Below the pieces are notes generated by a model. That model was not told where the DNA came from, made no database searches, and was given only the letters and a program-made list of their open reading frames with translations. A DNA stretch of 64,000 nt, from assembly GCA_963729045.1 (NCBI GenBank), contig CAVSMN010000010.1, forward strand, positions 106,559 through 170,558, written 5' to 3'. This DNA is from an uncultured Nitrososphaeraceae archaeon (GTDB lineage Archaea > Thermoproteota > Nitrososphaeria > Nitrososphaerales > Nitrososphaeraceae). Below, in pieces: positions 12,565-63,981 of this stretch (within the stretch, counting starts at the first letter, position 1; every line of letters begins with the position of its first letter). Both the position numbers and the translations under genes were made by a program.

Positions 12565-12589
12565 AAAATGCAACGTGAAGGATTTGAGC
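12565..12589 (-). repeat. tRNA-3'-derived repeat, highly degenerate
   Basis: + strand aaaatgcaacgtgaaggatttgagc versus consensus aagtgcgaagtgcgggatttgaaccc. Confidence 0.5.
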
Positions 12590-13097
12590 TTGACTACAAT
12601 CTGACTGCAAATATTAATTATTTAAAGGATCATTATTCGGGAGAGCAAAGAATACCAATCAAATCTAGAATACGATATACGATGACTACATTTACTAAAA
12701 CAAGATACAGATGGATATTTATTGCCAAAATAACAAAAGAATTTGTTCTCTACATGCATTCATTTAAAACTATATCTATTTTGTCCTTTATTTGAAAAAG
12801 ATTTTTCTTATTGACGGTAATACTATGAGATTCGATAAAGTTTTCGCCCCCATAAACTTGATGAACTATTGAATACTGATTCTCAAACATATTGTCTCCT
12901 TTATGTTGCTTGTAAAGATCATTAACTTCAATAATCCAACGGATTTTATTTTCTTCTCCTGATGTACTTTCTTGTGAGATCACGAACGATATTGTAAGGT
13001 GGCTAAACTTCATTTATTTGTATCCACCCAAAGATCTTTATTTTCATAATCAATATGAACCAATTTTACTGATTATAATGTCCTATCTATTCTATCC

Positions 13098-13126
13098 AAA
13101 AGTGCAAAGTACAGGATTTGAAGCCG
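13098..13126 (-). repeat. tRNA-3'-derived repeat, degenerate
   Basis: aaaagtgcaaagtacaggatttgaagccg. Confidence 0.7.
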
Positions 13127-13306
13127 ATCCTTCCTGCAGTATTCGTTATCTAATTAAGTATTTCTTTAAGAAGGTGTATATTCTTGATATGGTAGTATTT
13201 GATTCTAGAGTATTAAACAAAATGATCTGAAACCACATAGATATATCCATTTGGTCTAGAACCATCTAAATTGTTGATTTTAGTAAAAAAAGATGGAATA
13301 AATTAT

Positions 13307-13735
13307 TTACTTGCAGTGACCTTTTGACCAGCCAACACTGTATCCTTTAGCATAATCCCCTGATCCTGGAGAATATCCCCAGCAGTGATTATGATCCCAC
13401 CAGCCCTGTTGGCATCCTTTTATCCAATTCTGAGACTTTCCAGAGTATTCTGTGCAATAATGGGGTGAGCTTTTGCATTCTCCTTTATTCCATCCAACTT
13501 TGTATCCCTTGGCTACCTCGCCGGTCCCTGGGTTGTAACTTTTGCAATGGTCATGATCATACCAACCTTGTTTACATCCTTCTACCCATGCGTTTGACTT
13601 TCCTATTTCATCTGCACAATAATGTGAAGCAGCATCTACAGATTTATTGACGACCAATGATGGAGCGACGGCGATTGATATTGCAACAAGTGCTATTGCG
13701 AGTATCTTTATATTAGTATCCATTAAATTGTTCAT
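13307..13735 (-). CDS. secreted Cys/Trp/Gly-rich protein with two tandem ~55-aa repeats
   Basis: Signal peptide, then two copies of HYC....GKS..W..GC.QGW.DH.HC..Y.PG.G..AKGY.VGW.KG.CK. Confidence 0.8.
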   Translation of the reverse strand: MNNLMDTNIKILAIALVAISIAVAPSLVVNKSVDAASHYCADEIGKSNAWVEGCKQGWYDHDHCKSYNPGTGEVAKGYKVGWNKGECKSSPHYCTEYSGKSQNWIKGCQQGWWDHNHCWGYSPGSGDYAKGYSVGWSKGHCK

Positions 13736-13940
13736 ATAATTTGGGCATATAAAAGCATTTTTGGGTCCTTTTGAATTATACATGTCATCTGATGTTACTC
13801 CAATTCTCAAAGATGTTGTAAATATGATAGAGTATGGAAGTCCACAAGGTTATGAATATCATTTAGATTATCAGCAATTGTTTGGATCCAATATGTGGTA
13901 AGAATAGAAAAAGTCCAATAAATAAAGAAAATTATAGTAT

Positions 13941-13986
13941 TGATTTTTCCTCTGGATCAACAAGGATGAACCCTTTATTTGAACCC
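13941..13986 (+). repeat. family-2 ~47-bp repeat, copy 1
   Basis: tgatttttcctctggatcaacaaggatgaaccctttatttgaaccc; similar copies at 23719, 42529, 49722. Confidence 0.75.
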
Positions 13987-14099
13987 GATTCTTTTTTATT
14001 CATATCAAATGAACAATGACTATTGCCTTGTATTATTTCATGAATCATTAAATCTTAATTTTGGAAATTATTGACAATTCTTAAATAATTCATTTGGCT

Positions 14100-14525
14100 A
14101 GAGTTAAAATACAATCAATAAAACAAATTCTGGTAGCATTCTAACTCTCATAATAGTAGCAATAGTAGTAGCGATTATGTCGACAATGATCATCACAAGT
14201 CCGATGAAAATTGCTAACGTAGATACGCAAAATATGGATACTTATAGTCACACTCTATATGGTAATAATGTAGTATGATACTGTTTAATTGACCTTGATA
14301 CTGCGAAAAAGTGGTATAGTACATATTGAAATAATAATACTAACCTACCAAGTGCGTACATACCGACTTCGGAAGAAAATACCGATGGCTGAGATAACAC
14401 TAATCCAAAGGACGGTGGAGGAGTACAAGTAACCTACATTTAGAGCAATTCGTGTGGCTCAAAAGGAGGTGTTGATTCGGACAAAATCAATAGCGGTGCA
14501 ATTTTTGATTAAAAAGAATATCGCA
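14100..14525 (+). pseudogene. degraded paralog of the secreted protein at ~37830-38307
   Basis: gattcggacaaaatcaatagcggtgca...aagaatatcgca matches ~38265-38316; multiple stops. Confidence 0.6.
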
Positions 14526-14580
14526 AAAACATTGGAATAAACAACATTTTTTTATTTTAATAATCTAAAAAATATAAAGA

Positions 14581-14596
14581 GCGGGATTTGAGCCCC
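14581..14596 (-). repeat. tRNA-3'-derived repeat, truncated
   Basis: gcgggatttgagcccc. Confidence 0.6.
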
Positions 14597-14951: not shown

Positions 14952-15202
14952 TAGTACAACTTTGTATCATACTTTTTTATAAACATTCTCTAAATAATAT
15001 ATATTTTTAATTAATAACATCTAAAATAAGTATTATTTGTAAATTTCATATAAATATTTGTAAAAATAATAATATGATTGAAAATACATTACTAATTCAT
15101 TTTTTATTTCGATTTAATTGCAATTTATTGAATCTAGTAATAAAGTAAAATTTCAACACCAAAATCATACATAATTAAGAAAAATCAAATCATAAACTAA
15201 AG

Positions 15203-15237
15203 ATGCAAAGGTGTTGGATTTGAACCCGCGATCCCTT
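15203..15237 (-). repeat. tRNA-3'-derived repeat including variable-arm end
   Basis: atgcaaaggtgttggatttgaacccgcgatccctt; partial inverted echo at 15261-15274. Confidence 0.8.
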
Positions 15238-21085: not shown

Positions 21086-21184
21086 ATTTACTAATAGCAA
21101 CCCGATGGACAAACAGATTATCAGAGGGGAACAAATTGGTTCAAATCCCATAGCATATTTTCAAATTCTTTATGTAAGTTTATT

Positions 21185-21238
21185 AAGTGAGATGTGGGGA
21201 ATTTGAATCCCCAATGCTTGTCGCCTCAGGATTCTAAG
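21185..21238 (-). repeat. tRNA 3'-half remnant, possibly with a Leu(UAG) anticodon loop
   Basis: Reverse complement CTTAGAATCCTGAGGCGACAAGCATTGGGGATTCAAATTCCCCACATCTCACTT; inverted GGTTCAAATCCC at 21138. Confidence 0.55.
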
Positions 21239-22133: not shown

Positions 22134-22161
22134 AAAATGCAAAGTGTTGGATTTGAACCCG
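22134..22161 (-). repeat. tRNA-3'-derived repeat
   Basis: aaaatgcaaagtgttggatttgaacccg. Confidence 0.8.
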
Positions 22162-22558
22162 TCATGTCGTGATTCTGTTATGCGGCCATATATCCCTTCA
22201 AAATATCGTTTACTTTTGAATATCGGTTTTCTGATTCTTGTATTTACAGATAAAGGAGCAACAGAAGCAGCATTTTACCTTTAATGCCAATCATTCAAAT
22301 CAGATAATGAGTTTTAGATTTCAACCATTCATCAAGTGTAAGAATATTTTCGTACAAAATTGTTACGGTTACAAAACATTTTGAATAAAATTTTCCATAA
22401 CAAGTTTGGCATATGATAATTTGAGTTCCAGTAAACAAGTTGCTTTTAGTAGACAATTATCAAGACGCTTAGAACAATAGGTATTCAAGTCATCTATAAT
22501 AAAGACATGTTCCTACCTTGAAATTTTTATTTAAATAAGATTAATTAATATAAAATAC

Positions 22559-22969
22559 ATGCAAGTCACTCATGAACTAACAGATTCGGCCCTTGGACTA
22601 TTAAGAGGGAAGAATATTGCTTTTGTAGCATCTTTAATGAAGGACGGTGGACCACAAATCACCCCTGTCTGGATTGATTACGATGGAGAATTCATATTAA
22701 TTAATACCGCAGAAGGGAGAGTAAAACAGAAAAATTTTCAACGAGACCCAAGAGTAGCCATCTCTATAATCGATCCGACCAACCCGTACAATACAGTTAG
22801 TATTAGAGGAAATGTAAAAGAACAAAACTCAGATGGTGCAGATGATCATATCGATAGACTTGCAAAAAAATATCTAGGAGTAGATAAATACCCGTTTAGA
22901 TCTCCGGAAGAAAAACGAATTATTCTAAGAATAAAACCTGAAAAAGTGTTTCATATTTCGAATGAATAA
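22559..22969 (+). CDS. PPOX-class F420-dependent oxidoreductase
   Basis: DGGPQITPVW, NTAEGRVKQKNFQRDPRVA, IDRLAKKYLG. Confidence 0.9.
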   Translation: MQVTHELTDSALGLLRGKNIAFVASLMKDGGPQITPVWIDYDGEFILINTAEGRVKQKNFQRDPRVAISIIDPTNPYNTVSIRGNVKEQNSDGADDHIDRLAKKYLGVDKYPFRSPEEKRIILRIKPEKVFHISNE

Positions 22970-23126
22970 AATATATCGTGATACTCTTACATCAGAGATT
23001 TATTTACACTGCATTACTGGGTAAAAATATTCGAGTAATCATTTCAGTCCATCGCCCTTGATAATGGATGAACATTATATCAAATTCAATTAGTCATGTA
23101 CACGGAATATTTTGTTGTCAAAATTA

Positions 23127-23153
23127 AAAAGTGCTTAATGCAGGATTCGAACC
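23127..23153 (-). repeat. tRNA-3'-derived repeat, degenerate
   Basis: aaaagtgcttaatgcaggattcgaacc. Confidence 0.65.
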
Positions 23154-23205
23154 AGACTCCTAATATAGATTAGCCGGGCTTTTTATCATACCAAACGAAA
23201 TAGAC

Positions 23206-29040: not shown

Positions 29041-29067
29041 AAAGTGCAAAGTGCGGGATTGAACCCG
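29041..29067 (-). repeat. tRNA-3'-derived repeat
   Basis: aaagtgcaaagtgcgggattgaacccg. Confidence 0.9.
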
Positions 29068-29075
29068 TCATTTTG

Positions 29076-43924: not shown

Positions 43925-43973
43925 TAGGAGACTAATCAGGAAAGAAGAATTAGATATTAATTTCGTACGCGAT

Positions 43974-44041: not shown

Positions 44042-44264
44042 TAAGTGATTATTATGATCTTGTTTTCACAAAAATTGAAACCAAATAGATGAAAAATTCT
44101 GCCATTCTGATTCTTAGATTTGCTATCATTCTTCCTGTATCATTTGTTAAATTAATTGCATGTAATCCATTTAGATTGGATTATCTATGCTCAATTCGAG
44201 TGGGATTAATATCGATTCCAGTACAGGTCTTAACAAAAAGGGGTAATTTTTTGGATATTTTCCT

Positions 44265-45818: not shown

Positions 45819-45903
45819 ACCCTACAAAGAAGGATCCTAAAAATAAAGGTTTTGGTAATAAATTACAATGATCTTCACTTAAATAAAAATCCACCATGAG
45901 GTG

Positions 45904-46390: not shown

Positions 46391-46821
46391 GAATTACCAA
46401 AAGATTTTCTCAAAGGTGAATTTTTCAACGTATGTGCAATACAGATGATATTATTAAAGATATTGCAATAGTTGTATCAAATTCTTCAATCTTACAATTA
46501 TTTTGTAAGTCATTGTAAAATTAAGCAATAAATGATAAACAATATCGATATATTATTAGCCTCTCCAAAGCATTGATCTTAGACGATAGGTTTCTCATAC
46601 TACTTAAACTTCTATAGGAGCGATATATAAGAAAAACCTCCCTTGAAATTTTATGATTAGTTAATTGTAGTTTTCAATTTTGGTATTCATGTAGAACTGT
46701 GCTTGTTAAATGGATCAGCCTGTTCCTATAACTCAACTCCACAAAACGGACAATGATTATATCATAATTATAAAGTTTGGATCCTTTCTCAATTCTATGG
46801 ATCCATCATGCTCTACCATCT

Positions 46822-48416: not shown

Positions 48417-48660
48417 CGCTTTCTCGACGCCATAAAGAATCTCTGAGCTTTTATCCTTGGTTTGAGGGAAGGAAGGAATACCCGTAATGTTTCATCTAAA
48501 TATCATGTTTAAAATATAAAAATATGCCGCTGCAAACACTTTAGTACGAAACTGTCATAGTTCATTAATTCTCCTTTTTTCAAGTAACTTTTAATTAAAG
48601 AAGTTGCTTTGAGACATTTAGGCATAAATTTTTAATAAAATGGGCTTTTAATACAATATA

Positions 48661-49642
48661 GTGGATGATTTAACATTTAGACAATTGATGGAATCAAAAT
48701 ATTATCATCCAGAGGTTACAGATGTCATTTTTGATTCCGATAAAATGTTAGAAATGGGCATAGTTGCTATTAATAGTACTGAAAGAGGATTTGTTATAGT
48801 ATGGGATAAAATAATGCTTGATTCCTTGTGGAAGTTTTATAAAGTTGGTATACTCCTTGCTGAAAAACATGCCAAAGAAAGGGGTATCAAATTTAGACTA
48901 ATTGTTGAAATTACGAAAGAAAACATGGAGTCTGTTAAATCATTCAAGTATTATGAAATAAAACATATTGATAATATAAGAAGTAACTTTGCTGTATTGG
49001 ATAACAGGGCCTATATGGTGCAAATATTTCATAAGGAAAATGAGCCTCCTGCTCAGGCGTTATTTAGTAATACTAAAGCCCTAGTAGATAGTCAACAAGC
49101 ACTATTTAACAGATTATGGGAAATTGCAACTCCAATAGCAAACAGATTAAAAGAGATAGAATATCGTGATAAATTAAACTACCAGAGGATTTTAACAAAT
49201 CATAAAGAAATTCATAATGAAATAGATTCTTTAACATAACAATGTGAAAAAGAATTACTAATATTTTCGTCATTCAAATTAATTTATACTGTACTTAACA
49301 AGAATAACTTTGTAAATAATTTTAACTCATTGCTAAGAAAAGGTATTACAATTAAGATTCTCACCGACGATATTGATGAACATTTAATGAGTCATATTGC
49401 TCAAATAAAGGACAACAAATAAAGATAATCCGATGCAGTTTGGGTATAGCAACAAGTTGGGAGAATTTAATGAATTTATAATGTTAAGCGATAATAAGTA
49501 TGTCTTGCAAATAAAATATGACCAACAAAATGAAATAGTTGCCTCATTTTCAAATGAAGAGCATAATGTAATGATTCAAGAGATTCTATTTGAAAAATAT
49601 TGGAATGAAGTCAAGAGTCTTACAGTCATTAGCAATAATTAG
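48661..49642 (+). pseudogene. disrupted paralog of 50507-51487 (kinase N-terminal / TrmB-PLD-like sensor domains)
   Basis: MDDLTFRQL start, internal TAA at 49237, C-terminus QEILFEKYWNEVKSL in ORF 49433-49642. Confidence 0.75.
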
Positions 49643-49721
49643 ATAGTTTTAGATTCAATAATTGAAGGTCATTAAAACAAGGATTGATAAAATGTTGAAC
49701 GCAATGATGCGCTAATAGTAT

Positions 49722-49768
49722 TGATCTTTGCGCGGGATCAAGGACGAACCGCATTATTTGAACCCACT
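49722..49768 (+). repeat. family-2 ~47-bp repeat, copy 4
   Basis: tgatctttgcgcgggatcaaggacgaaccgcattatttgaacccact. Confidence 0.8.
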
Positions 49769-49930
49769 AACAATTATTAAATGACAATCTCGATGCTCTC
49801 AACATTAACCCTCTAATGTAATAGTAAGGTCATTGGACTAGATAAGATGTGGATTTGCACAGAAACCTTTGAAAGACAATATAAAAATGATTTAAGGTAA
49901 ATTAAATTCATATTAGATTTTGATGGTGTT

Positions 49931-50197
49931 CTAATTTAATAATCCACCTAATAAGCCGGTTGCTTTTTCTGTTAGAGATGAGTCAGACGAGGTAGAATCA
50001 TTTGTTGTTGATACTGAACTATTATTCGTTCTTTGACTATTATCATTTCCTGTCAGTAACTTTGTTGCCTCATCTTTAAGAGTGGACAAATCCTGCGCTA
50101 ATGCCGTCTGGCCTAATGAATTACTTACTAGCGATGCTGTCAATACAAATGACAGAACAAAACTCGCGATTACTAAAATTTTCTTCATCTTTTTCAA
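49931..50197 (-). CDS. small secreted protein
   Basis: MKKMKKILVIASF...ALA signal peptide. Confidence 0.7.
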   Translation of the reverse strand: MKKMKKILVIASFVLSFVLTASLVSNSLGQTALAQDLSTLKDEATKLLTGNDNSQRTNNSSVSTTNDSTSSDSSLTEKATGLLGGLLN

Positions 50198-50364
50198 ATT
50201 GTATGTTCATCATATTATATAACAGATACAACATTGAGTAAGTTATAAACAGTATTTCATCCAGATATCAGAGTGGGAAGTTTTACAATACCAATAATAA
50301 ATTTACCATTTTCAATTAGCGTGAGACCGAATGATTAGAAAACAGAAACCATGTAGACAGATTT

Positions 50365-50433
50365 GTAGATAAGCGGGTTCAAATCTATCTTAAGAAAAGA
50401 AGAATGAGGTGCGAGATGCGGGATTTGAACCCG
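50365..50433 (-). repeat. tRNA-3'-derived ~65-bp element with terminal inverted repeats
   Basis: gtagataagcgggttcaaatct...gaggtgcgagatgcgggatttgaacccg. Confidence 0.95.
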
Positions 50434-50506
50434 AGTTAAGAGTTGTCAAGGATAAGAGACATGTCTAGGACAACTTTTTAATAAAATGGAGTTTTGATAC
50501 AATACA

Positions 50507-51487
50507 GTGGATGATATAACATTTCGACAATTGAAAGAATCTGGCTATCATCATCCCGAGGTTACAGAAGTAATTTTTGATGCCAACCAAATGTTTGAAA
50601 TGTCATTGCACTCGGTCAGTATTAGTGAAAAAGGCTACGATATAGTATGGGACAAGGTTATGATAGATTTTCTGAGAAAATATTTCAAAGAGGGCCTGCA
50701 ACTCCTTGAAGATTTGGCCAATAAAAGAGGATTAAGAAGAAGATTAATTGCAGAGACTACCGCAGATAATATTGAATTTGTAAATTCACTAAGTTATTCT
50801 GAAATAAGACACCTTGATAATCTCAGAGGAAATTTTGGAATATTTGATGAAAGGGCATATATTGTCCAAATTTTTCACAAGGATACAGAAAAACCAAATC
50901 AAGCATTTTGGAGTAATTCCATTACACTTGTAAGAAAACAACAAGCCCTGTTCGACGATTTATGGAAAATGGCTATCCCATTGTCGGCCAGAAATAAAGA
51001 GTTAACGTATCATGTAAATCCAGAATATAGGAAAACTTTTACTGATTATGATCACATATATCAAGAGGTAAAATCAATCCTTGAACAAAGTAGAAGGGAA
51101 TTATTAATATTTGCATCTTTTAAAATTTTGAAGAGAATATTTCACAATAAGGATTGGATCAATACTATCGCTTCACTGCTAGCAAGAAGAGTGAATACTA
51201 GAATATTGACAGATGATATTGATGGAGATTCAGCAAGAAAAATTATGCGGATCCAAAATGAAGATAAGGACAAAAGAATCCATTTTGGATATAATGACAA
51301 ATTAGGAAATTTCAATGAACTGGTTATATTAAGTGATGAGAAGTATGCTTTGCAAATAAAGTATGACCATCAAAATAAACTAATAGCATCATTCACTAAT
51401 GAAGAATCCAGTGTTATGATTCAAGAGATATTATTTGAGAAATGCTGGAACGAAGTAAAGAGTCTCGAAGTTGTGAATAGCAATTAG
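50507..51487 (+). CDS. stand-alone tandem sensor-domain protein (resembles N-terminus of the neighbouring kinase)
   Basis: IRHLDNLRGNFGIFD, QQALFDDLWKMAIP; no H-box. Confidence 0.75.
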   Translation: MDDITFRQLKESGYHHPEVTEVIFDANQMFEMSLHSVSISEKGYDIVWDKVMIDFLRKYFKEGLQLLEDLANKRGLRRRLIAETTADNIEFVNSLSYSEIRHLDNLRGNFGIFDERAYIVQIFHKDTEKPNQAFWSNSITLVRKQQALFDDLWKMAIPLSARNKELTYHVNPEYRKTFTDYDHIYQEVKSILEQSRRELLIFASFKILKRIFHNKDWINTIASLLARRVNTRILTDDIDGDSARKIMRIQNEDKDKRIHFGYNDKLGNFNELVILSDEKYALQIKYDHQNKLIASFTNEESSVMIQEILFEKCWNEVKSLEVVNSN

Positions 51488-51851
51488 ATTAATTACTATG
51501 AGGATAAAAATTTCAACATTATATAAATGAAAAATAAAGTCGACTGGTCCAATAATATTGAATAAATTTAGAGTGGCTTTACAAATTCTTACTAATACTC
51601 AATCTAGTTTTTGCCTTTACTATCAGGAGAACAATCGCCGCTTTCTACGAGCCTTGTGATTTCTCGTTTTTATCGGCATTTTCTTCAGCATCTTTCAAGT
51701 TGTTTATCAATCTTTTGTCTGCCTTGGTGTCATTGCTTGTCCTTTTCCAAAACTTTCCTAATTTTCTAAATAGCACAGAGTCTTTCAACTAATTCTACAT
51801 GTATACTATAGATGAATTTGCTTATAAAGAAAATAACGTCATAAAAACAAG

Positions 51852-51914
51852 TGCGAGATGCAGGATTTGAACCCGCACTTCGCTCGTACCTTAACCAGGC
51901 TGGGCCAACCTCGC
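51852..51914 (-). pseudogene. tRNA pseudogene (Leu-like) lacking anticodon and variable arms
   Basis: GCGAGGT TG GCCC AGCCTGGTTAA GGT acgagcgaagt GCGGG TTCAAAT CCTGC ATCTCGC A: acceptor stem, D-arm and T-arm present; 63 nt. Confidence 0.8.
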
Positions 51915-51937
51915 CTGAAATAAAATTAACAATACGG

Positions 51938-51946
51938 TATTAATAA
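51938..51946 (-). promoter_or_regulatory. candidate archaeal TATA box of the tRNA remnant
   Basis: TTATTAATA about 24-32 nt upstream of the 5' G; AT-rich context lowers specificity. Confidence 0.35.
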
Positions 51947-51961
51947 CTTAATGCTGGGCTG

Positions 51962-52246
51962 TTATTTGCAACTATTCCATATTTTCCCCTTTCTAAAAGC
52001 AATTTTTCTAGCAGAGCTAATGTCACGAATCCCACCTCGGTTTTTTTCCGTACCTTGTCTTATGGAGGTTCCGTATTCGTCTACAATTTCAATAATTACC
52101 TCGTCTTTGAAATACGATTTTAGAATTCCAGCTATTTGATGAGATAGAGCCAAGCTTCCATCACCGATTCTAACTATTTTAGTTGGAGACTCTATTGATG
52201 ACAAAACAAAACTGATTTTTTCAACTGTAGAATTAACCGAAGACAA
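51962..52246 (-). pseudogene. C-terminal fragment of an RNase H/YqgF-like archaeal protein
   Basis: VRIGDG...EIVDEYGTS...RDISSARKIA; no obvious N-terminus. Confidence 0.45.
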
Positions 52247-52737
52247 AATTGTTCTATGCAGGTTTGATTATAAGAGATATAACAACAGAGGAAAAATTAT
52301 CAAGAACCAAAGTAAATACGATCAAATTAAGAATTAAAGAAAACTCTAAACCAATGTAAATTAGATTTTTGAAATACACTTGTATGGTTAGATTCTATTG
52401 ATACCAGGATTAGGCTCGCTTGTCTTTCCGCTCGAGGATTGAATGAAATAATTAAATAGTGAGACTTTGTTCATCCTTGAATTATATCCCTGCGGACCGA
52501 GCAAAGTTAGACTACGGCTAATAGACAGGTCGTGTATTCATTTTTTGAGATACTTGCAATGCAATAAGTTATCGAATATGTTTGACTTACAAAAACAATT
52601 ATTGTATAGATGCTGTACGATTTCAAAGTCTTTCAAATTCTCCACCATCCTAAAGTAATTGTTTCTCTTTGGGAATAATATACAATTTATTATTATATAA
52701 GATTCGTATATAAGAAAATTATCAAATAGATAATACA

Positions 52738-53112
52738 TTGATTTACCCCATCAATTGTTACCTTTCAATGACTAATAACAGTATTAGGAAAAAAATACTT
52801 TATCAAATACCTGTATTATTGATAATACTTGCGATATCCGTTCCAATGGCCACTGCTTCAGGTTTATCCAATGTCTTTTTTTCTTCTCCTAGTATGTCAG
52901 TAAATCAACTTGTATATGCAGAAGATGAGGTTTCCAGTGGTGGAGATCATTTAACTTCATCAACTACTACTGACCCAGTCTTAGGACACAGTCTAATAGG
53001 CTTAACAGTCACTAAAGAAAATGCTAATCCTTCTTTAGTTGAAGAGACTGAAGAACAAGATCTTGATTGTAGATACGTTTCAGAAAAGAATTTCAAAGTA
53101 TCAGAGGAATGA
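52738..53112 (+). CDS. host-type secreted hypothetical protein abutting the GC-rich island
   Basis: Signal-like segment, AT-rich; stop 4 bp before the NRPS ATG. Confidence 0.55.
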   Translation: MIYPINCYLSMTNNSIRKKILYQIPVLLIILAISVPMATASGLSNVFFSSPSMSVNQLVYAEDEVSSGGDHLTSSTTTDPVLGHSLIGLTVTKENANPSLVEETEEQDLDCRYVSEKNFKVSEE

Positions 53113-53116
53113 TGAC

Positions 53117-56100
53117 ATGCCGCAATTTGTTCCAAACCAATTGAATCCCGGCCACGACGGAGGAGAGAAGGTCGCCGAGTTGCGCCCGCTCGCACAAGGG
53201 CAGCCTGATCTGAACGGAGTTTGCGGCCTCAGCCGTCCTCAAAGTATAGTACGCGAGCATGCAAGCAATTCAATTCGCTGGGCTCCTGACGAGCGGCTCA
53301 ATCATCTTCTCGAGGAAGCCTGCGTCCGCTTCGCGACGAACGATGCCGTCATTGGAAGCGGCATCGTTCTGAGTTATCGCGATTTCGACCGCCGTGCCAA
53401 TCAGCTCGCGCGTCATCTGCTCGCACACGGAATCAAGTCCGGCGACCGCGTCGCAATGATGTTTGACAGATCACCAGAAGCATACGTGGCGATGCTTGCG
53501 GTAATGAAAGTCAATGCGGCCTATGTGCCACTCGACGCTGCCTTTCCGATTGAACGCGTCCGCTTCATCCTCGGGGATGCCAACGTTTCCGCCATTCTGT
53601 CAATGTCGAGTTTCGCGGTGCGCCTCTCCGGCGCCCAGGTCAACAAGATATTTCTCGATTCGGAGAGGCAGGCGATCGGTGCACAGGCAGCCAATTCGTT
53701 GACTGGCGTTTCGCCGCCGACCGAGCCCCTCTCCTACATCATTTACACATCGGGCACAACCGGTAATCCGAAGGGTGTTTGTATCGGACACGCAAGTATT
53801 TGCAATTTCGTGCGCGTCGCCGCTGAGCTTTATGGCTATTGCGCCCGGCGATCGCGTCTATCAGGGCATGTCGATAGCGTTCGATTTCTCCGTCGAGGAG
53901 ATCTGGGTGCCGCTGATGTGCGGCGCGACGCTCGTGCCGGGCCCGACTGGCAGGACCCTGATGGGCGACGAGCTCGGAGACTTTCTGCGCAAACGCCGTG
54001 TGACCGTAATGGCTTGTGTTCCGACGCTGCTCTCTACTATAGAGCAGGACGTGCCGGACTTGCGGATCCTGTTGGTCGGCGGCGAGGCTTGCCCGCAAAG
54101 TCTCGTGGCCCAATGGTATCGCCCCGGCCGCCGCATTCTCAACACCTACGGCCCCACCGAGGCGACCGTCACAGCGGCAATGACCGAGCTGCGGCCGGAC
54201 AAGCCGGTCACGATCGGCGTACCGCTCCCGACCTATTCGATCGTCATCCTCGATCCTAACGAGGACAATACCGTTCCGATAGGCGAGATAGGCGAGATCG
54301 GTATCGCGGGCATCGGATTGGCGCTTGGTTACATAAATCGCGATGACCTGACTAAGAAGAAGTTCATCCGCGATTTCCTGCATATCAAGAACAATCCATC
54401 CGGCAAAATCTATCGCACCGGTGATGTTGGTCGAATCATCGAGAACGGCGAGATAGACTACCGCGGTCGGATCGACACGCAGGTCAAGATCCGCGGCTAT
54501 CGCATCGAGCTCAAAGAAATCGAAGCGGTGCTACTCGACCTGCCACAGGTCGCTCAAGCCGCCGTGACGACATTTGAGATTGAGGAGAGCGTCGTCGAAA
54601 TCGTCGCCTATTATGCTCTCAAGCGGGGTGTCGAGCTGCCGCATAGGGAGATCTGGCAGGCACTGCGCAGCAAGCTTCCCGTCTACATGGTGCCGGCCTT
54701 CTTCGAGCAGGTCGACACCATACCGATGACGTTGAGCAACAAGGTCGACTACAAGAGGCTGCCCAAGCCGCAGCCGAAGCGTTTTTCCGCTACGCAGGTG
54801 TATGTCCCGCCCAAAACCGACCGCGAGCGAATGGTGCACGACGCGCTCGCTGGCGTCCTTTGCATCGAGCATGTCTCGACCGAGCACCACTTCTTCAATG
54901 ACCTTGGTGCCAACTCACTGTTGATGGCACGCGTCTGTGCGGCAATCCGCAGGAAACCGGGCATGTCGAACTTGTCGATGCGCGATATCTATATGCATCC
55001 GACGATCGCCAGGCTGGCGCATCATCTCGATTCATCGATCGACGGATCTGTCGCAACGAAGCCGGAACCCTTCCATGTTCCGTCGACCTTGTCGTACGTC
55101 ACGTGCGGGGCCCTGCAGATTGGATTCACCGCGGCCTATCTGTTGTTCGGACTCTTTATCTTCGTGGCCGGCATTCAATGGGCGACCGCCATCGACAGCG
55201 TGGTGGAGATCTACGTGCGCAGCGTCGCGTTCGGCTCAGGATTGTTTGTTGCGCTGATCGCGCTTCCCGTCGCGGCGAAATGGGTGCTGATAGGTCGCTT
55301 CAAGGCGCAATCGATTCCGATCTGGAGCTTTGCGTATTTCCGCTTCTGGGTCGTCAAGACTCTGATGCGCACATCGCCTGTGGCTGCCTTCATTAGCACA
55401 CCACTCTACAACGCCTATCTGCGCCTGATGGGCGCCAGAATCGGCCGCAACGTGATGCTGAGGTGCCAGTTCACGCCGGTCTGTACCGACCTTGTGACGA
55501 TCGGTGACAACACCATCGTCAACAGTGAAACGAGCCTGCTCGGCTATCGTGCGCAGTCTAACTTCATTCATATGGGCCCGGTTACGATCGGCAGCAATGC
55601 GTTCGTCGGCGAAGGGAGCGTGCTCGACATCGATACTACGATGGGCAACAACACTCAGCTCGGTCATGCCTCGTCACTGCAGAGCGGCCAGCGGGTGCCG
55701 GACGACAAGCGCTACCATGGCTCTCCGGCGGTCGAGACGTCCTCGGACTATCGCCAGATCGAGTCCAAGAATGGTGCTGATCTCCGAGGCGCCATCTATG
55801 TGTCGCTTATCCTCGCGACAATGATCATGATTGCCGGGCCTGCCATGATGATCCTCATCTACCACGTCTGGGATCTATTTTGCCCGACTCCTCTAACCAC
55901 TCTGCATTGTACAACGTTCTTCTCCATGTCGACTCCCTTGCTTCTCGCCATTTCGGCGGCGCTGTTCTTCGGCGCGCTTGGCATCGGTCTGGCTGGTGTG
56001 TATGTCATCCCGCGCCTCTGTATGAGGGGGCTGCGGCCCGATGTAACCTACCAGAATTTCGGCTTCCACTACCTGCTGCAGAGCATCATCCGAGGCATCA

Positions 56101-57291
56101 GCAACTCGGGCTTCTTCAGCTCGCTTTTCGGCGACTCATCAGCCGTCGTATGGTACATGCGCTACGTCGGCTGGAACTTGAACACGGTCCATCAAACCGG
56201 CTCGAACATGGGAAGTGACCAGAAGCACGACAACCCGTTTCTCTGCAATATCGGCAGCGGCACGATGATTTCGGACGGGCTCAAGATGATGAACATGCAG
56301 ATGTCGCCGACGTCGTTCCGGCTTGCCGAGTCGAAGATAGGCGACAACAACTTTCTGGGCAACGGTATCTCCTACCCACCGAATGGTCGCACCGGATCCA
56401 ACGTCCTGTTCGGGACCAAGACATTGGTCCCGATCGACGGCCCGGTGCGCGAGAATGTCGGGCTACTTGGTTCGCCGGCCTTCGAGATTCCGCGCAACGT
56501 CTGCCGTGATCGCGACATATGTGCCTCGTTCGACGAGCAGACACGTCTCGCCCGTCTCCGCCGCAAGAACATGTACAATTTCGTCACAGCCTTGATCTTC
56601 ATCACAAGCCAGTGGGTGGTAGTGGCTGCCGCGTTAATGCTCACGCGAGTCGCAATTGCGAACATCGATCATTTCGGCACCTTCGTGTTCTTCGGAGCCA
56701 GCGTGGCGGATATTGGATTGAACATGGCCTTCCTCATCGTGCTCGAGCGCGCGATTATGAGATTCAAGCGACTCAAGCCGCGGCTCGCCTCGATCTACGA
56801 TCCGTATTTCTGGTGGCATGAAAGGCACTGGAAGTTAAATCGCTTTCCCAATCTTGACCATGTTCGCCGGCACCCCGTTTCGCGGAATACTGCTTCGCGC
56901 CATGGGCATGAAGGTCGGTGCCAAGCTGTTCGATTGCAGTTTGGGTATCCCGGAACGCTCGCTGATCGAGGTTGGCGACTACACCAATCTGAACGAGGGT
57001 TGTGTGTTGCAGGCACATTCGCTAGAGGAAGGCGTTTTCAAGTCGGACTATATCCGGCTCGGCAACAGGTGCTCGGTCGGCCCGGGGGCCTTAGTTCACT
57101 ACGGCGTCAGCACCGGAGACGACGTCGTGCTCGACGCCGATTCGTTCCTGATGAAGGGCGAGATCCTGGATTCTCATACGGAGTGGTGCGGAAATCCGGC
57201 CAAGTTGGTGCGCCGTCATGTAGCTCGGGCAGAGGTTTGCGTCCAGGACGTCGCCGACACCACCGCCCGAAATGACTTCGCCCCACAATGA
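53117..57291 (+). CDS. Pls/PosA-family single-module membrane NRPS (A-T-TM/terminal domains), two frameshifts (~53839, ~56845)
   Basis: YTSGTTGNPKG, FDFSV, NTYGPTE, YRTGD, GRIDTQVKIRGYRIE, T-domain LGANSL, TM helices and hexapeptide-repeat blocks (LRLMGARIG, LRAMGMKVG). Confidence 0.9.
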
Positions 57292-57742
57292 GCGACAAGA
57301 TCAGATGCTAAAGAAGATGACCACCGACAATTGGGAAGCGGTGGTCGAGATTGAGCTCCGTGCCGGCCAGGAAGACTTGATGGCGAGCAATTCTATTCGG
57401 TTGCCGAGGCGCAGTTCGATCCCGACACGCGCCCGCGCTGCTGTTTATGCCGAGAAGCACGTCGTCGGCTTTCTGATGTATGACGTACAGAAAAAGAAGG
57501 GCAAGGCGCAGAAAGCCTCGATCTATAACTTCATGATCGATTGGAAGCACCAAGACAAAGGCTATGGTCGCGCCGCGCTGAGCAAGGCTCTGCAGGAGAT
57601 CCGAGCGATCCCGGGGGTGAACAGGATATCGATTCGCTATATGCCAGAAAATCCGATTGCGAAGCCGTTCTATATCATCTTCAGATTCGTGGAGGTGGGT
57701 CGGGACCGCGATGGCGACGTGATCGCGGTTTTGAAACTATAA
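57288..57742 (+). CDS. GNAT N-acetyltransferase (BltD/polyamine acetyltransferase-like) with indels
   Basis: DNWEAVVEIEL, VGFLMY, FMIDWKHQDKGYGRAAL, YMPENPIAKPFY; ATGA overlap with NRPS stop. Confidence 0.8.
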
Positions 57743-58377
57743 TGTCAGACGGTACAGTCGATTACTCGCTGAAGCGAGCAATCGAATCCCTCTCCTTGCC
57801 TGGTCTGCTGATCGGCCATCGTGTGATTTCGCAAGGCGATGAGCTCGCGCTGCTCCACGAAGAGATGGCGTCGTTATCCTTCCCTACAATCGAGAGGCGC
57901 CGTGCCAGCGGCGCCGCACGACGTGTGGCGCGCGAACTGATGAACTCGATGGGCTTTTCCGGCCTTCCGATCCTCAGGAGCACATTTGGCGCCCCGATCT
58001 GGCCCGCCGGGGTCGTAGGCTCGATGGCACATGATGATCGAATTGCTGTTGCCGCTGTCGGGCTGCGGCGTGACGTGGAAGCGGTCGGCATCGATATAGA
58101 AACTGTCGCGCCGTTGCCGCCGGACATGCTCGAGCTGATCGCCACACCGCGGGAGCGGCATGCGATTGCTGATAACCCATTGGGGGTAAAAATTCTTTTC
58201 GTCATCAAGGAGGCAGTCTACAAGGCGGTCTATCCGCTCGATCATGAGTTTCTGGATTTTCACGATATCGAGGTCGACTTTGCCGGCCGGCTCGCGACGA
58301 CCCAAGCCGGACGCACGCTCGCGCTCCACTGGTGCGTTTTCTCTCACGTGCTGGTCGTGGCGACGATTCATATCTGA
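57742..58377 (+). CDS. 4'-phosphopantetheinyl transferase (EntD/Sfp-type)
   Basis: GAPIWPAGVVGSMAH, VGIDIE, FVIKEAVYKA; ATG overlaps GNAT TAA. Confidence 0.92.
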   Translation: MSDGTVDYSLKRAIESLSLPGLLIGHRVISQGDELALLHEEMASLSFPTIERRRASGAARRVARELMNSMGFSGLPILRSTFGAPIWPAGVVGSMAHDDRIAVAAVGLRRDVEAVGIDIETVAPLPPDMLELIATPRERHAIADNPLGVKILFVIKEAVYKAVYPLDHEFLDFHDIEVDFAGRLATTQAGRTLALHWCVFSHVLVVATIHI

Positions 58378-58599: not shown

Positions 58600-59275
58600 T
58601 TACAAATTGCATGTCTTCATTTAGCTTATTTTTACTTAGCGGTTCTTGATGTCTTGTAATCGATAACTATAAAATCATCTTTATCTTTTATTATTTCTTT
58701 ATACTCTATTTTGTTAACAACTTTTTTTATTTTATCAAAATCCTGTTCTAAGATCGCATCTAAAATCTCTTTAATGTTGATGTCTGTTGATTTTGTTTTA
58801 GCAAAATAAAGTATTTTCTCTATTGCACTTTGATATTTACCTCATTATTGATATCAGCGACTATCCTCTTTGTTAATTCGTCATGGGCATCCAATTTATC
58901 AACCCATGAATTTTCTATTTCAAAATCTTCATACACTATGCACGTCTTTTATTTGTAGTTCTTATCAGCTAAAAATCTAAATAGTTTTGAATTTGTTAAA
59001 TTATTTCTTTATTTTTTGACACAAGGTAACATTTTATCCGTTGCCCTTGTTATTGCAACTTACATTAACTTTCTTTCCTCCTGAATGTGTTGATCTTTCT
59101 CAGAAAGATTAGGTTGAATTCCTTTTAACAGTGTTAGGGTGCTAGGGACAATAAATTTATCTTTTATATATAAAGAAGGAAACTTTCTTTCAATTATATC
59201 TATTATAAACACCACAGGAAATTCCATTCCCTTTGAAGCGTGTACTGTCATAACTTTTATTGCATCCTCATCGCT
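58600..59275 (-). pseudogene. UvrD/AddA-like helicase-nuclease remnant
   Basis: VMTVHASKGMEFPVVFI, EERKLM*VAITRA, downstream FIVIDYKTS. Confidence 0.8.
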
Positions 59276-59289
59276 ATTTGTTTCCTGTG

Positions 59290-59478
59290 AGTAAGTTGTT
59301 GTTGTTTGAGTAGCAACGGGCATCCCTCTAGTATATCATTAGATTGATCCTCGAGAGTAAGACATGGTATGGGACAACCAATATCATCGATAAAACTAGC
59401 CCCTTCAAATGTTTCATTTGAACAAGGATTGTTTTGCTCGGATTGGGTATCAGACGATTGATCATTATTATCAGTCAC
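59290..59478 (-). repeat. ~190-bp diverged direct duplicate of 46020-46210
   Basis: TDNNDQSSDTQSEQNN.CSNET shared at DNA and protein level. Confidence 0.9.
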
Positions 59479-59807: not shown

Positions 59808-59874
59808 TCGCGGGTTCAAATCCCGTACTTCGCACCTCTTCTTTTCTCTAAAGGATTTGAACCCGCTTGTATAC
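59808..59874 (+). repeat. tRNA-3'-derived ~65-bp TIR element, opposite orientation
   Basis: gcgggttcaaatcccgtacttcgcacc...ggatttgaacccgcttgtatac. Confidence 0.95.
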
Positions 59875-61447: not shown

Positions 61448-61669
61448 GAATCGTTACCACGGCAACTATGTGAGAGGAGATGATTGAGCCTTTCGCCAGG
61501 TGACCAGCGTAGTACATTATTCCCATGGTTAAGTACTAAACTCTGAGGGGTGTCGAGGCGGCAAATATCTTTCATATTAAATTACTGTGGTGTATGCTTG
61601 AGCAACTAGGAGACATTCTCCTTTTCCGTTGTGTCAAGCATCCTATGCATGTGAACCAATTTACAACAT
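61448..61669 (-). pseudogene. collapsed second copy of the NRPS island (NRPS N-terminus fused to PPTase C-terminus)
   Basis: Hand translation ...ENVS*LLKHTPQ*FNMKDICRLDTPQSLVLNHGNNVLRWSPGERLNHLL|SHIVAVVTI versus island ...EKVAELRPLAQGQPDLNGVCGLSRPQSIVREHASNSIRWAPDERLNHLL and SHVLVVATI. Confidence 0.85.
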
Positions 61670-61779
61670 ATTTTAATTCTTCAAATAAATATACCATAGT
61701 CATAAACTCAAACCTCAATAGTTCCTCCAATCGTATTTTCATTAAAGGATATTATTTAAATACAGTGTAGAAAAGTTTC

Positions 61780-62170
61780 ACATTGGGAATAATTCTAAAT
61801 AAATCTCTAAAATACTCCTAGGCGTCTTTTTTAATCCTTCTACTTTGGTTATGTATGATTACGCTTGGATTACATACAATAAATAAAATTGTAATCCGTA
61901 TGCGCCAAGAATATTTCTATCATCTCTAATATTCCTATTGCAACTTATGGTTAGCATCTATCTAGGTTATCTATTGAAATTATTGAAATTATCAGTTTTT
62001 TCTTTGTTTTCTTCTTACCATTTTTACAATAGCAGATTACAAATTTCAACAAACTGAAAAGAAAGTTTCGTTTTAGGTAACGTTAATGATTCTTTCTTTT
62101 CGGCTTTGAAACTTTCATTCATCTTATCTAGAATACTATTTCCATAAGCTTATTTTTTCGTAATCCTGTT
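61780..62170 (-). pseudogene. KAP-family P-loop NTPase remnant
   Basis: KLIISIISIDNLDRC*P*VAIGILEMIEIFL (Walker B DxLDRCxP signature) with stops. Confidence 0.65.
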
Positions 62171-62336
62171 TTAAATTACTTAAAATTTATTTTTATTTGT
62201 AACACAATTGACATACTCAAATAATAATAATATATTCTAATAAAATAGGTAACAATAACAATATACTCAGAAGGCGGAGTTGGCCTTAGAAGAAGTACCT
62301 GGATTACAAGTAACACTGGATTTTTATCGTGAGCGA

Positions 62337-62390
62337 AGGGATCGCGGGTTCAAATCCCGCACTTTCCACTTTTATCGCGGGATTTGATCA
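62337..62390 (+). repeat. tRNA-3'-derived repeat, hairpin form, opposite orientation
   Basis: agggatcgcgggttcaaatcccgcactttccacttttatcgcgggatttgatca. Confidence 0.93.
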
Positions 62391-63897
62391 TATGAATAAT
62401 AACCATAAGAATATGATGTTCTACTTTTATCAATTATCTCAACTCAAAAAACATTAATTCTCTATAATTAGGATCACATCATCATTTAAATATATTTGCG
62501 ACTATTAATAAGGGAAAATGGATAAAGACGTTCAAAAGATTTTCCGACCGTCTTTGAGAAACAAATTTTTGGTAGAAATTGTAGGTACTTTTATTTTAGT
62601 ATATGCAATTGCTTCTGCTGCAACCGTCTATTCTGATAGTGGACAATTAGGAGTAATTGGAATAGGTTTGGTTCATGCTCTAGTCTTAACAGCTATTGTA
62701 TATGCCATAGGATATCGTTCTGGTGCGCAGGTCAATCCTGCAGTTACAATAGGTCTCTTGGTGGCCAAGAAAATTGGTAGAAAGGAAGCAGTTGTGTACA
62801 TTATTGCTCAGATTATTGGTGCCGTGCTTGCAGCTGCAGTTGTCTATTCAATTTTTGGCTCTGAAATGTCAGCTAGTGTAACATTGCCTTCCGACGGCAA
62901 CATTGTAAGAGCCCTTATCTTAGAAACCGTAATGACATTTACATTGGTATATGTTGTATTGGCCACAACTACCTCTAAGAACTTTAAGATAGTTCCATTG
63001 GCTGGAATAGCCATAGGTTTTACTCTCGGATTCAATGTTATATTCGGAGGCTCAATTACTGGAGGGTCATTAAATCCAGCTCGCTCCTTTGGCCCTGCCT
63101 TAATAACTTGGGATTTTGCTTATCAGTGGATTTATTGGGTAGCACCAATTGCTGGTGGACTAATAGCAGCAGGAGTGGTACAAATTGCTTCATACTGAAG
63201 AGGAAGAGGAAGAGGAAAAACTTCCACCAAAATAATGTTTGTACAAGAACTTGGATTCAGATATGAATGAGGTATTATACACCATACCTGTTTGACGGTC
63301 TCCACAGGTAACAGCCTACAATTAGGATAATGGTAATATGTATACAACAAGCACAAATTCAAACTCTGTCTTTGTAATTGGGTCAATAGTGCCGATTGCA
63401 GAAGACGGACTTGACCAAACTATAGACTCTGGTGTAACCGTGCATTTAGAAGGCGATGGTGGATAACCCCGGGAATTAAACACTGACTTAATAGTGGACT
63501 CGATAATCAGACTTGGAGTCACTCTGAGTAACTCAACAGCAGTAAATTCAATCTTCGCAGCACCCCGAACCATATTCCAACATACATTCGCATTTGAACT
63601 GGTCGTGACAAACAAGCAAGATTTGGTAAGTAAACCCTATAGCGTCACTATAACCGTGGGTTCTAATTTTGAAGGAATAATTGATTCAGGTAACAAATAT
63701 TTTATATCTATGTTCAAGAAAACTCTGGTAATAATGTAGGTGTACAATCTGGTAGTGAAAGTCATGGACGCTTACTCCCCAATCTTCCAAGGACAATCTA
63801 AAGAGCAGGATAGTCAAGTAATATCTTACTTTCAAATCTAAAATTGAACCTACTCATCTAGAGTGGTTTCAAAATGCATCGCTCTAAATTTAAGACA
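62347..63897 (+). repeat. ~1.55-kb module, copy B, bracketed by tRNA-derived repeats
   Basis: Inverted duplicate of 36139-37689. Confidence 0.95.
62518..63198 (+). CDS. aquaporin (MIP family), second copy with a +1 frameshift near the C-terminus
   Basis: Protein identical to 36803-37519 up to GGLIAAGV; ggagtggtac versus ggagtgtac. Confidence 0.93.
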   Translation: MDKDVQKIFRPSLRNKFLVEIVGTFILVYAIASAATVYSDSGQLGVIGIGLVHALVLTAIVYAIGYRSGAQVNPAVTIGLLVAKKIGRKEAVVYIIAQIIGAVLAAAVVYSIFGSEMSASVTLPSDGNIVRALILETVMTFTLVYVVLATTTSKNFKIVPLAGIAIGFTLGFNVIFGGSITGGSLNPARSFGPALITWDFAYQWIYWVAPIAGGLIAAGVVQIASY

Positions 63898-63981
63898 GAG
63901 GGATCGCGGGTTCTTATTCTCTAAGCAAAGGGATTTGAACTATCTAAACACGAAGCAGGTTCAAATCCCGCACTTCGCACC
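63897..63981 (+). repeat. composite tRNA-3'-derived repeat, opposite orientation
   Basis: agagggatcgcgggttc...gggatttgaact...gcaggttcaaatcccgcacttcgcacc. Confidence 0.92.

Follow-up and report, generated by a model that had tools for sequence, protein, structure and literature searches.

Integrons and super-integrons consist of attC sites with an adjacent intI gene, an attI site with a Pc promoter, and mostly single, co-oriented, promoterless cassettes. Among archaea, She and colleagues reportedly described in 2001 the capture of genes through integrase-mediated insertion at tRNA genes, and Cossu and colleagues are said to have found in 2017 integrase-driven inversions between tRNA genes in Thermococcales. 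The integrated elements of thaumarchaea have been catalogued by their integrase (Krupovic et al. 2019, PMC6563490); according to the sections of that survey cited here, the smallest measures 2.6 kb, integrase included, tRNA genes are the main targets (39 integrations, 57%), att sites are mostly shorter than 26 bp, and elements with a tyrosine recombinase are known to build arrays through repeated use of a site. In the bacterial accretion arrays of integrative and conjugative or mobilisable elements (ICE/IME), as outlined in the relevant passages of PMC5704250, cis-mobilisable elements (CIMEs) without integration genes keep att sites made of the target 3′ end and lie in tandem beside the intact target. 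Here we analysed a stretch of 64,000 nucleotides (the window; G000:C10:106559-170558, where G000 is the genome under study and the window end is the contig end), which belongs to a genuine, genus-specific array free of integrases; tRNA-Gly 3′ ends delimit its modules, and comparison between genomes gives signs of mobility at the level of the module.

Repeats derived from the 3′ end of tRNA-Gly

An earlier reading made from the letters alone (the sequence-only reading) had described about 18 copies of a 27-nt motif in the window, the reverse complement of a tRNA 3′ end, lying on one strand and then reversed. Scanning for the full motif with at most 3 mismatches gave 9 matches against 0.00 expected, and its 16-nt core, GTGCGGGATTTGAACC, at the same threshold gave 20 matches against 0.17 expected, a number that 0 of 100 shuffles reached. 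Seventeen of the 18 copies were recovered by the core, with starts on the + strand at 13109, 14579, 15211, 21194, 22144, 23138, 29051, 37674, 38364, 40378, 42702, 44025, 50416 and 51858 and on the - strand at 59813, 62347 and 63958, which is the strand pattern that had been described; the copy at 12565 is weaker (~19/26 bases by eye) and was missed at this threshold. The tRNA origin of the motif, which comprises T-arm, acceptor strand and discriminator, was likewise confirmed. Three extra weak core matches with 3 mismatches each lie at 3895-3910 (+), 10119-10134 (+) and 21138-21153 (-), two of them in the flank that is colinear with the related genome G043; they may be still older relics.

The source of the repeat had been sought at a tRNA-Leu locus. 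ARAGORN analysis of the whole assembly revealed an intact tRNA-Gly(CCC) at C13:91703-91778, and because the last 31 nt of this gene, GGGATCGCGGGTTCAAATCCCGCACTTCGCA, equal the repeat, the source is tRNA-Gly(CCC) and not tRNA-Leu. Downstream of it, six exact 22-nt copies in the same orientation (94827, 97672, 98995, 100848, 102452 and 106013) run up to the contig end at 107641, and one degenerate copy lies near the end of C16. In all, the array holds ~27 copies of the tRNA-Gly 3′ end separating at least 25 modules. In the single-contig genome G043 the layout is alike, with modules between direct tRNA-Gly 3′-end repeats and the intact gene at one end, the arrangement expected of tandem accretion and of CIMEs.

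No tRNA was called in the window by ARAGORN, and the single tRNA-like match of Rfam there (35.6 bits) is a pseudo-tRNA-Gly at 51852-51914 (-), which heads the window's run: all 15 minus-sense copies lie downstream of it. It shares the 5′ flank and 5′ half of the intact gene, its anticodon arm is replaced by GAAGT, and it joins an antisense acceptor/T-stem piece to a T-loop in sense orientation. Next to it lies a duplicated 3′ fragment of the DUF460-like core gene that precedes tRNA-Gly (51962-52257, -), and the segment 51843-52257, pseudo-tRNA plus ~0.3-kb gene fragment, matches C13:91360-91786 at 91.8%. The same pseudo-tRNA-Gly occurs in G043, 9.8 kb from the real tRNA-Gly of that genome. By analogy, the window probably holds the distal and middle parts of one genus-specific island of at least ~70 kb that is headed on C13, the contigs being unjoined. 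A second pseudo-tRNA-like scar was seen at C13:97597-97640, ~75 nt upstream of the repeat at 97672, where a tRNA-Gly 5′-end fragment, GCGAGGTTGGCCC, stands beside an antisense acceptor/T-stem piece.

Copies farther from the (pseudo)tRNA tend to be more decayed. The number of matching bases out of 22 declines along the window (Spearman rho -0.77, p 5e-4, n=16) and along the array of G043 (rho -0.71, p 9e-4, n=18), so that the distal sites are the more decayed ones, again as in tandem accretion; such a gradient is more in line with stepwise accretion at the tRNA than with a cassette array equally active throughout. Over most of its length the decayed part of the window (12.5-29.6 kb) follows the order of G043, at 80-90% identity, whereas homologues of the exact-core part (37.6-51.9 kb) are scattered over the G043 array, indicating that intact sites go with rearrangement and decayed sites with stability. 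Hydrolase paralogues that share only 70-91% identity have exact 22-mers on their flanks, so the proximal sites are renewed or conserved rather than drifting.

To place the array among relatives, 61 genomes of the family Nitrososphaeraceae were searched, 6 of the window's own genus (g1) and 55 of 17 other genera; one of the 61, the unpublished G035, has a single copy and bears on none of the conclusions. Three or more copies were found only in g1 (G000 16, G043 12, G032 7 and G001 3), the other two g1 genomes, G054 and G019, having 2 each, and the 55 genomes of other genera had 0-2 copies each, normally only the tRNA gene itself. The closest hydrolase-module loci are assigned to Candidatus Nitrosocosmicus sp. 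or to Nitrososphaeraceae metagenome-assembled genomes. In G032, a second array of four copies lies far from tRNA-Gly and abuts tRNA-Glu(CTC). There (locus L015, G032:C1:1375001-1395000, positions 10089-10230 of the locus), tRNA-Glu(CTC) has an inverted copy of its T-arm (GTTTGAACCCGGGAT) behind it, and ~300 bp further on stands the convergent array of four tRNA-Gly-type repeats, an arrangement that suggests related sites aimed at other tRNAs. Elsewhere in G000 (C7:141378-144749), a copy of the tRNA-Ser(GGA) 3′ end lies 3.3 kb downstream of that gene, and the module in between carries a split beta-propeller gene and no integrase.

A dispersed tRNA-derived repeat, such as a short interspersed element (SINE), a miniature inverted-repeat transposable element (MITE) or a repetitive extragenic palindrome (REP), or an element acting in RNA, such as a transcript-end hairpin or a tRNA-like processing signal, would account for copies that are intergenic, often 50-300 nt past a stop codon, and for an inverted repeat at the junctions that folds into a stable hairpin (parts c and d, below). 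This explanation is largely refuted by the distribution and is very improbable. At no more than 2 mismatches, 16/16 matches in the genome fall on three contig stretches (C10, C13 and C16), co-oriented except for one inverted block and beginning at the intact tRNA, so the element is clustered; the random scatter in both orientations by which the sequence-only reading would have been refuted was not found. In the window, genes point in either direction relative to the repeat; modules are gained and lost as wholes at the repeats, and Rfam matches nothing in the window but the pseudo-tRNA.

Modules, junctions and their rearrangement

Comparison with relatives revealed modules that are present, absent or moved, with ends at the repeats. 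A 990-bp module with a pyridoxamine-phosphate-oxidase-like (PNPOx) gene lies between two repeats (22144 and 23138) in G000, whereas G043 has the same flanks with a single repeat and no module. The aquaporin (MIP) module occurs as copy 1 (36133-37689) and as an inverted copy 2 (62347-63903) with 93.5% identity, and a homologue at C13:100848-102388 matches at 89%, the match to copy 2 continuing to 102494 at 87%. In these three copies and contexts the homology starts exactly at GGTTCAAATCC inside the T-arm, and that of the two window copies stops one base before the half-site GAGGGATCGCGGGTTC, which is found at the same place in the C13 copy; joining both ends of the module would presumably rebuild the full site. 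The order of shared modules differs as well: tRNA, M1, M2, M3 in G000, and tRNA, M3-like, then M1-like (3370.8-3372.1 kb) and M2-like (3359.8-3361.1 kb) in G043, at 85-95% identity, similar to that of the flanks (88.7%). A metagenome contig (L033) has the tRNA followed by an M3-like module with 94% identity to M3 of G000, and in L039 the tRNA is followed by an M1-like module. These orders fit insertion next to the tRNA together with at least one relocation.

The sequence-only reading had predicted that breakpoints of gain and loss between strains would fall on repeats, and together with the missing PNPOx module and the relocations, breakpoint positions bear this out. Between 12.4 and 64 kb of the window, 50 distinct breakpoints of homology were counted; 15 of them are no more than 80 bp away from the centre of a repeat, compared with 2.8 +/- 1.6 expected, and 0 of 10,000 random placements reached 15, although the compared sequences are kin and their independence is overstated. 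Assembled contigs of four public runs over 36000-53000 also contain alternative joints that map to repeats (38325/38328 to 42691/42675, 43997 to 50393, 50386 back to 44012, and 51837 to 40369); at least one further joint, from 49621 back to 42855, represents the paralogous locus on C13.

Many junctions are composite. Given in tRNA sense, part a (GGGATCGCGGGTTC) is the left part of the site and stops in the T-loop; after a variable spacer follows part b (GGGATTTGAAC), an inverted T-loop, and after another spacer part c, the full 31-nt site, which is separated by 8-25 nt from part d, an inverted partial T-arm (GCGGGATTTGA or GATTTGAACCCGC). Part d was detected in 16/41 junctions (0/41 with shuffled flanks), b in 14/41 and a in 10/41. 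An alignment of 14 junctions showed conserved islands a, b and c with a more variable a-b spacer. Composite junctions end unrelated modules (hydrolase, aquaporin and a 207-aa open reading frame, ORF), and the c-d pair forms 11-14-bp hairpins in 7/7 junctions folded (z -1.8 to -5.5). An inverted T-arm copy after the tRNA was found for 1/30 tRNAs of G000, tRNA-Gly, which rules out d as a general feature of tRNA genes.

These data bear on a view without any dedicated system, in which a unit of tRNA 3′ end and hydrolase gene was tandemly duplicated, and homologous recombination or gene conversion between 30-130-bp repeats shuffles, deletes and inverts modules and occasionally takes up DNA. A large share of the modules are indeed alpha/beta-hydrolase paralogues with 70-91% identity, more distant hydrolase homologues (at most 67%) in other Nitrososphaeraceae carry no repeats, and tandem paralogous modules stand at 48.6-51.5 kb. 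Homologous recombination suffices for deletion of the PNPOx module between direct repeats and for inversion of DNA flanked by inverted repeats, and sites near the tRNA gene would stay exact through gene conversion with it. We nevertheless consider this view unlikely: the same site is carried by unrelated genes (MIP, aldo/keto reductase, S9 hydrolase, PNPOx, patatin with a kinase, and a luciferase-like monooxygenase), module homology starts at one fixed T-arm position in three contexts, a, b and d form conserved islands in otherwise variable spacers, and G032 has its second array away from tRNA-Gly.

With strands given in tRNA sense, the core match being on the opposite strand, the copies of the window are as follows. 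The most distal, degenerate one, at 12565-12591 (-), was read by eye. It is followed, likewise on the - strand, by copies at 13100-13126 (core 13109-13124, 3 mismatches; 18/22 to the tRNA 3′ end), 14570-14596 (core 14579-14594, 2 mismatches; G043 counterpart at 3318624), 15202-15228 (core 15211-15226, 2 mismatches), where the G043 synteny block ends, and 21185-21211 (core 21194-21209, 3 mismatches). The copies at 22135-22161 (-) and 23129-23155 (-) are the first and second boundaries of the PNPOx module (22162-23128, +), whose one gene is the ORF 22559-22969, and the T-loop of the copy at 29042-29068 (-) is shortened by a 1-base deletion. The exact 16-nt core appears at 37665-37691 (-), followed by part d, and at 38355-38381 (-); the copy at 40369-40395 (-) matches 27/27 of the motif and 22/22 of the tRNA 3′ end, and that at 42693-42719 (-), again 27/27, belongs to a full a-b-c-d junction at ~42660-42800. 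At 44016-44042 (-) an exact core is found with a d part that gives a 12-bp hairpin, and at 50407-50433 (-) a core with 1 mismatch, also with d. The reversed copies lie at 59811-59837 (+), with d and a 14-bp hairpin, at 62345-62371 (+), where MIP copy 2 begins, and at 63956-63982 (+), 18 bases from the contig end. An 82-nt direct repeat with 87% identity (14444-14525 and 38236-38317) stands just upstream of two different repeat copies, and it is present too beside the G043 copy at 3318624.

Pfam analysis of 80 window ORFs identified methyltransferases, PNPOx, FMN reductase, NmrA, CorA, diacylglycerol kinase, a phosphatase, two aquaporins, aldo/keto reductase, alpha/beta hydrolases, patatin, a histidine kinase, and a protein resembling nonribosomal peptide synthetases (NRPS) with a phosphopantetheinyl transferase. 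Module sizes range over ~0.6-9 kb, several with one or two genes measure 0.67-2.3 kb, the larger ones reach 6.4-8.6 kb, and gene orientation is mixed, in accordance with the earlier description of modules of unrelated accessory genes that lack an integrase, on which Pfam and tblastn agree. Hydrolase genes are antisense to the repeats in 29/29 cases.

MIP copy 1 (36133-37689, -) abuts a truncated helicase ORF. Beyond it, the module at 38382-40368 (+) encodes an ABM monooxygenase-like protein (38547-38924) and an S9/alpha-beta hydrolase (38999-40213), that at 40396-42692 (+) an aldo/keto reductase (40691-41863) and a 118-aa ORF, and that at 42720-44015 (+) a single alpha/beta hydrolase (43001-43924), whose paralogues with 70-91% identity, three on C13, one on C16 and five in G043, are each bounded by repeats. 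A 6.4-kb module (44043-50406) holds a patatin-like phospholipase, a histidine kinase and small ORFs in mixed orientation, and a one-gene module (50434-51848, +) holds a 326-aa ORF (50507-51487) with a paralogue at 48611-49620. The two adjacent paralogous modules (48611-49620 and 50456-51465) share 67% identity over 1 kb and each encode a protein of ~326 aa, of which further copies exist on C13 and in G043; the ORF beside the pseudo-tRNA matched no Pfam, PHROG or NCBIfam family, and a resemblance to TrmB/PLD-like archaeal clusters of the Atlas is a lead only. MIP copy 2 (62372-63955, +), with its gene at 62518-63198 and a small ORF, has its end within the a-b part of the following junction.

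Between the pseudo-tRNA and the inverted block, 53775-58377 carries an NRPS-like ORF of 1166 aa (the C-terminal part of an AMP-binding domain, a carrier domain and hexapeptide repeats) and then a 4′-phosphopantetheinyl transferase; this pair had no counterpart in the relatives' arrays compared. Fragments of genes were also observed, namely the N-terminus of a ResIII/DEAD helicase with Walker A (35979-36173) and a UvrD_C piece (59060-59323), the region around which is repeated at 46001-46213 (80-96% identity).

Search for a recombinase and proposed mode of insertion

The sequence-only reading had proposed cassette capture at tRNA-derived sites with a recombinase supplied in trans. The att-like sites, the small recombinase-free modules and the movement of modules at repeats agree with this proposal; the enzyme itself was found neither in cis nor in trans. 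Pfam (E<=0.01) detected no recombinase family among the 80 window ORFs or among 82 ORFs of C13, C16, C12 and 40 kb of G043, where the sole mobile-element gene is an insertion sequence (IS) transposase at the C16 end, and none of these 162 ORFs belongs to an integrase, replication, conjugation or capsid family. Apart from the C12 integrase used as control, 28 ORFs of unknown function had no PHROG or NCBIfam match.

The genome search for a tyrosine recombinase that had been proposed yielded one gene in the assembly, C12:401282-402226, outside the arrays and beside tRNA-Arg (PF00589 13.5 bits; phrog_1 E 2.4e-6; XerA model 26.5 bits against a cut-off of 220). Using it as tblastn query, we obtained nothing better than E=6.7 in ~304 kb of arrays (G000, G043, G032, G001 and G054), and nothing at E<=1 in 21 metagenome contigs (70 kb) or 28 archaeal hydrolase loci (185 kb). 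No match to PF00589 or to the XerA model in the single-contig genomes G043, G032 and G001 is closer than 59 kb to the arrays, and the XerA model NF040815 scored above its cut-off in 0/4 genomes searched. Integrase relics were found by tblastn elsewhere in G000 (C12:119-1025, C14:115086 beside tRNA-Lys, and C18:12569); relics can therefore persist in this genome, yet none was found in the arrays. Integrase genes or pseudogenes stand directly beside tRNA-Arg(GCG) (C12:401058-402226) and tRNA-Lys(CTT) (C14:114694-115712), so classic integrase-bearing elements occur in the same genome.

Several candidates were rejected. The C12 recombinase belongs to a multi-copy family borne by mobile elements in 56/61 genomes and has no conserved orthologue, its best matches within the genus being 39-63% identical compared with 71-97% for the DUF460-like core gene. 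That DUF460-like gene, which has a RuvC motif and lies upstream of tRNA-Gly, is present in 58/61 genomes and 18/18 genera and is thus a family-wide core gene, not specific to the array. A split integrase of the SSV type was rejected by reasoning, as one-gene modules of 1.3 kb are too small for its halves, and tblastn was negative. A metagenome scan for the b-c junction retrieved 21 contigs, all of them array fragments without an integrase.

We give about an even chance to a stepwise process in which an enzyme acting in trans inserts modules that lack an integrase site-specifically at the T-arm of the tRNA. Small modules of 0.6-9 kb, often with one or two accessory genes and none with a recombinase, would be inserted one by one through site-specific recombination in the T-arm of tRNA-Gly(CCC). 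Because each insertion would restore the tRNA and leave its last 22-31 nt duplicated between modules, incoming modules would land beside the tRNA, and older ones would be pushed away and their sites would decay; recombination from site to site could later delete, relocate or invert modules. As no module carries a recombinase, the enzyme would have to act in trans; an episome or another element missing from the assembly might encode it, or it might belong to an unrecognised family. The T-arm, GCGGG-TTCAAAT-CCCGC, is built like a tyrosine-recombinase core, with inverted arms on either side of a 7-nt overlap, and T-loops and anticodon loops of tRNAs, according to Williams in 2002, reportedly serve as crossover regions. 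We infer site-specific rather than homologous recombination, with the crossover in the T-loop and a trans-acting enzyme. The fixed left module boundary at GGTTC, the end of part a at GGGTTC, the pseudo-tRNA fusion and the inverted block at 59.8-64 kb fit repeated insertion with deletion, relocation and inversion.

The long-established course of accretion and decay would instead start from tandem plasmids or proviruses, each with its own integrase for tRNA-Gly, that were whittled down to their cargo, the modules being CIME-like remnants. Direct tRNA 3′-end repeats, an intact tRNA at one end and distal decay are its expected outcome, as far as the passages on accretion in PMC5704250 go; the helicase and UvrD_C fragments, a ParB-like gene in the 8.3-kb module of G043, and a messy deletion that sets L028/L032 apart from G043, showing that decay happens, also speak for it. 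Set against these are the complete lack of an integrase or relic in the ~304 kb of arrays and in the further loci of 70 kb and 185 kb while relics persist at other tRNAs, and modules as small as 0.67-1.4 kb that are filled by one metabolic gene. In addition, the tRNA-proximal modules, expected to be the youngest, measure 0.9-3.1 kb and contain no recombinase (tblastn in five genomes, Pfam in G000 and G043). We regard this course as improbable.

Several findings weigh against stepwise capture by a trans-acting enzyme. No recombinase was identified in cis or in trans; the genus's integrase family, multi-copy, mobile and present in 56/61 family genomes, does not explain a genus-specific array, and virus contigs scanned for the 25-nt site gave 0 matches. 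The compared genomes are kin and not independent. The many alpha/beta-hydrolase paralogues could come from tandem duplication through unequal crossing-over, and distance-dependent gene conversion with the tRNA gene would also yield the decay gradient. Parts a, b and d occur in only 10, 14 and 16 of 41 junctions, and d is absent from three more distant species, so it is not essential to the array as such. A 4.2-kb indel between L028/L032 and G043 (99.5-99.9% identical) does not have both ends at repeats; it was consequently rejected as a clean recent insertion, and ordinary deletion is at work as well. Joints in the public-run contigs that go back or skip were rejected as evidence of excision, since their short sides of 25-45 nt (27-34 nt for the two that go back at repeats) may represent paralogous junctions.

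A more far-reaching form of stepwise capture, which we put forward tentatively and hold to be rather doubtful, is a dedicated archaeal gene-cassette system. Cassettes of one or two genes would each carry a ~110-130-bp composite site that mimics the T-arm and can form hairpins, an unrecognised or episomal recombinase would capture them at tRNA-Gly(CCC), and they would be reshuffled within the array. This system would lie behind the expansion of alpha/beta-hydrolase, patatin and further accessory families noted in Candidatus Nitrosocosmicus genomes.

Comparison with known systems

Small recombinase-free modules with short sites and an enzyme encoded elsewhere recall integrative mobile elements exploiting Xer (IMEX) and pdif modules; the site here is a tRNA T-arm and not dif, and no XerA passed its cut-off in the 4 genomes searched. 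Gene capture at archaeal tRNA genes and the inversions of Thermococcales resemble the array in the foreign genes beside a tRNA, the tRNA-derived direct repeats and the inverted block at 59.8-64 kb, but concern single elements with a split or intact integrase and not integrase-free arrays of many modules. With integrons the array shares a long series of small accessory modules, each ending in a ~60-130-bp site with hairpin potential, entry at one end, and order and content that differ between relatives. It differs from them in that no intI stands beside it (no PF00589, XerA-model or tblastn match in the window or the arrays of five genomes), distal sites decay, gene orientation is mixed, some modules reach 6-9 kb, and the platform is a functional tRNA gene instead of attI with Pc. 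The site is a tRNA-Gly 3′-end copy with hairpins, unrelated in sequence to attC, for whose motifs no scan was made.

Thaumarchaeal integrated elements come from the same phylum and use tRNA targets, but are defined by their integrase; the portion of PMC6563490 cited here describes no long integrase-less array, and the word Nitrosocosmicus has 0 occurrences in the text of that survey. Publications on Nitrosocosmicus islands and integrases, thaumarchaeal integrated elements, archaeal integron-like systems and CIME accretion describe no such array in their titles and the opening lines of their abstracts, supplements excluded. A study of skin Nitrosocosmicus (2026, PMC13245735) reports, in the portion cited, integrase-flanked islands and finds alpha/beta hydrolases and patatin-like lipases, the families that fill the array modules, to be highly represented in the genus.

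Ammonia-oxidising archaea play a key part in soil nitrification, and their ways of acquiring accessory genes are poorly understood. Should the array be an active platform for capture, it would represent a second, intI-independent integron-like route, archaeal and with a tRNA gene as docking site, and would offer a concrete mechanism for the hydrolase and lipase expansions of Candidatus Nitrosocosmicus as far as PMC13245735 documents them. On a conservative reading it is an unusually long, wholly integrase-free accretion array, which surveys defined by integrases would miss.

The nearest likeness is to CIME accretion as the cited passages of PMC5704250 present it: modules that lack integration genes keep target-derived sites beside the intact target, and their mobilisation would depend on an integrase from another element. 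Compared with what those passages describe, the present array is archaeal, has ~27 sites and at least 25 modules instead of two or three, consists of many modules with one or two genes, and bears extra inverted T-arm pieces at its junctions; Pfam on 162 ORFs and tblastn revealed neither a relic of an ICE, IME or provirus backbone nor a neighbouring element with a matching integrase. The array thus behaves like an integron or a CIME accretion array and is a member of neither.

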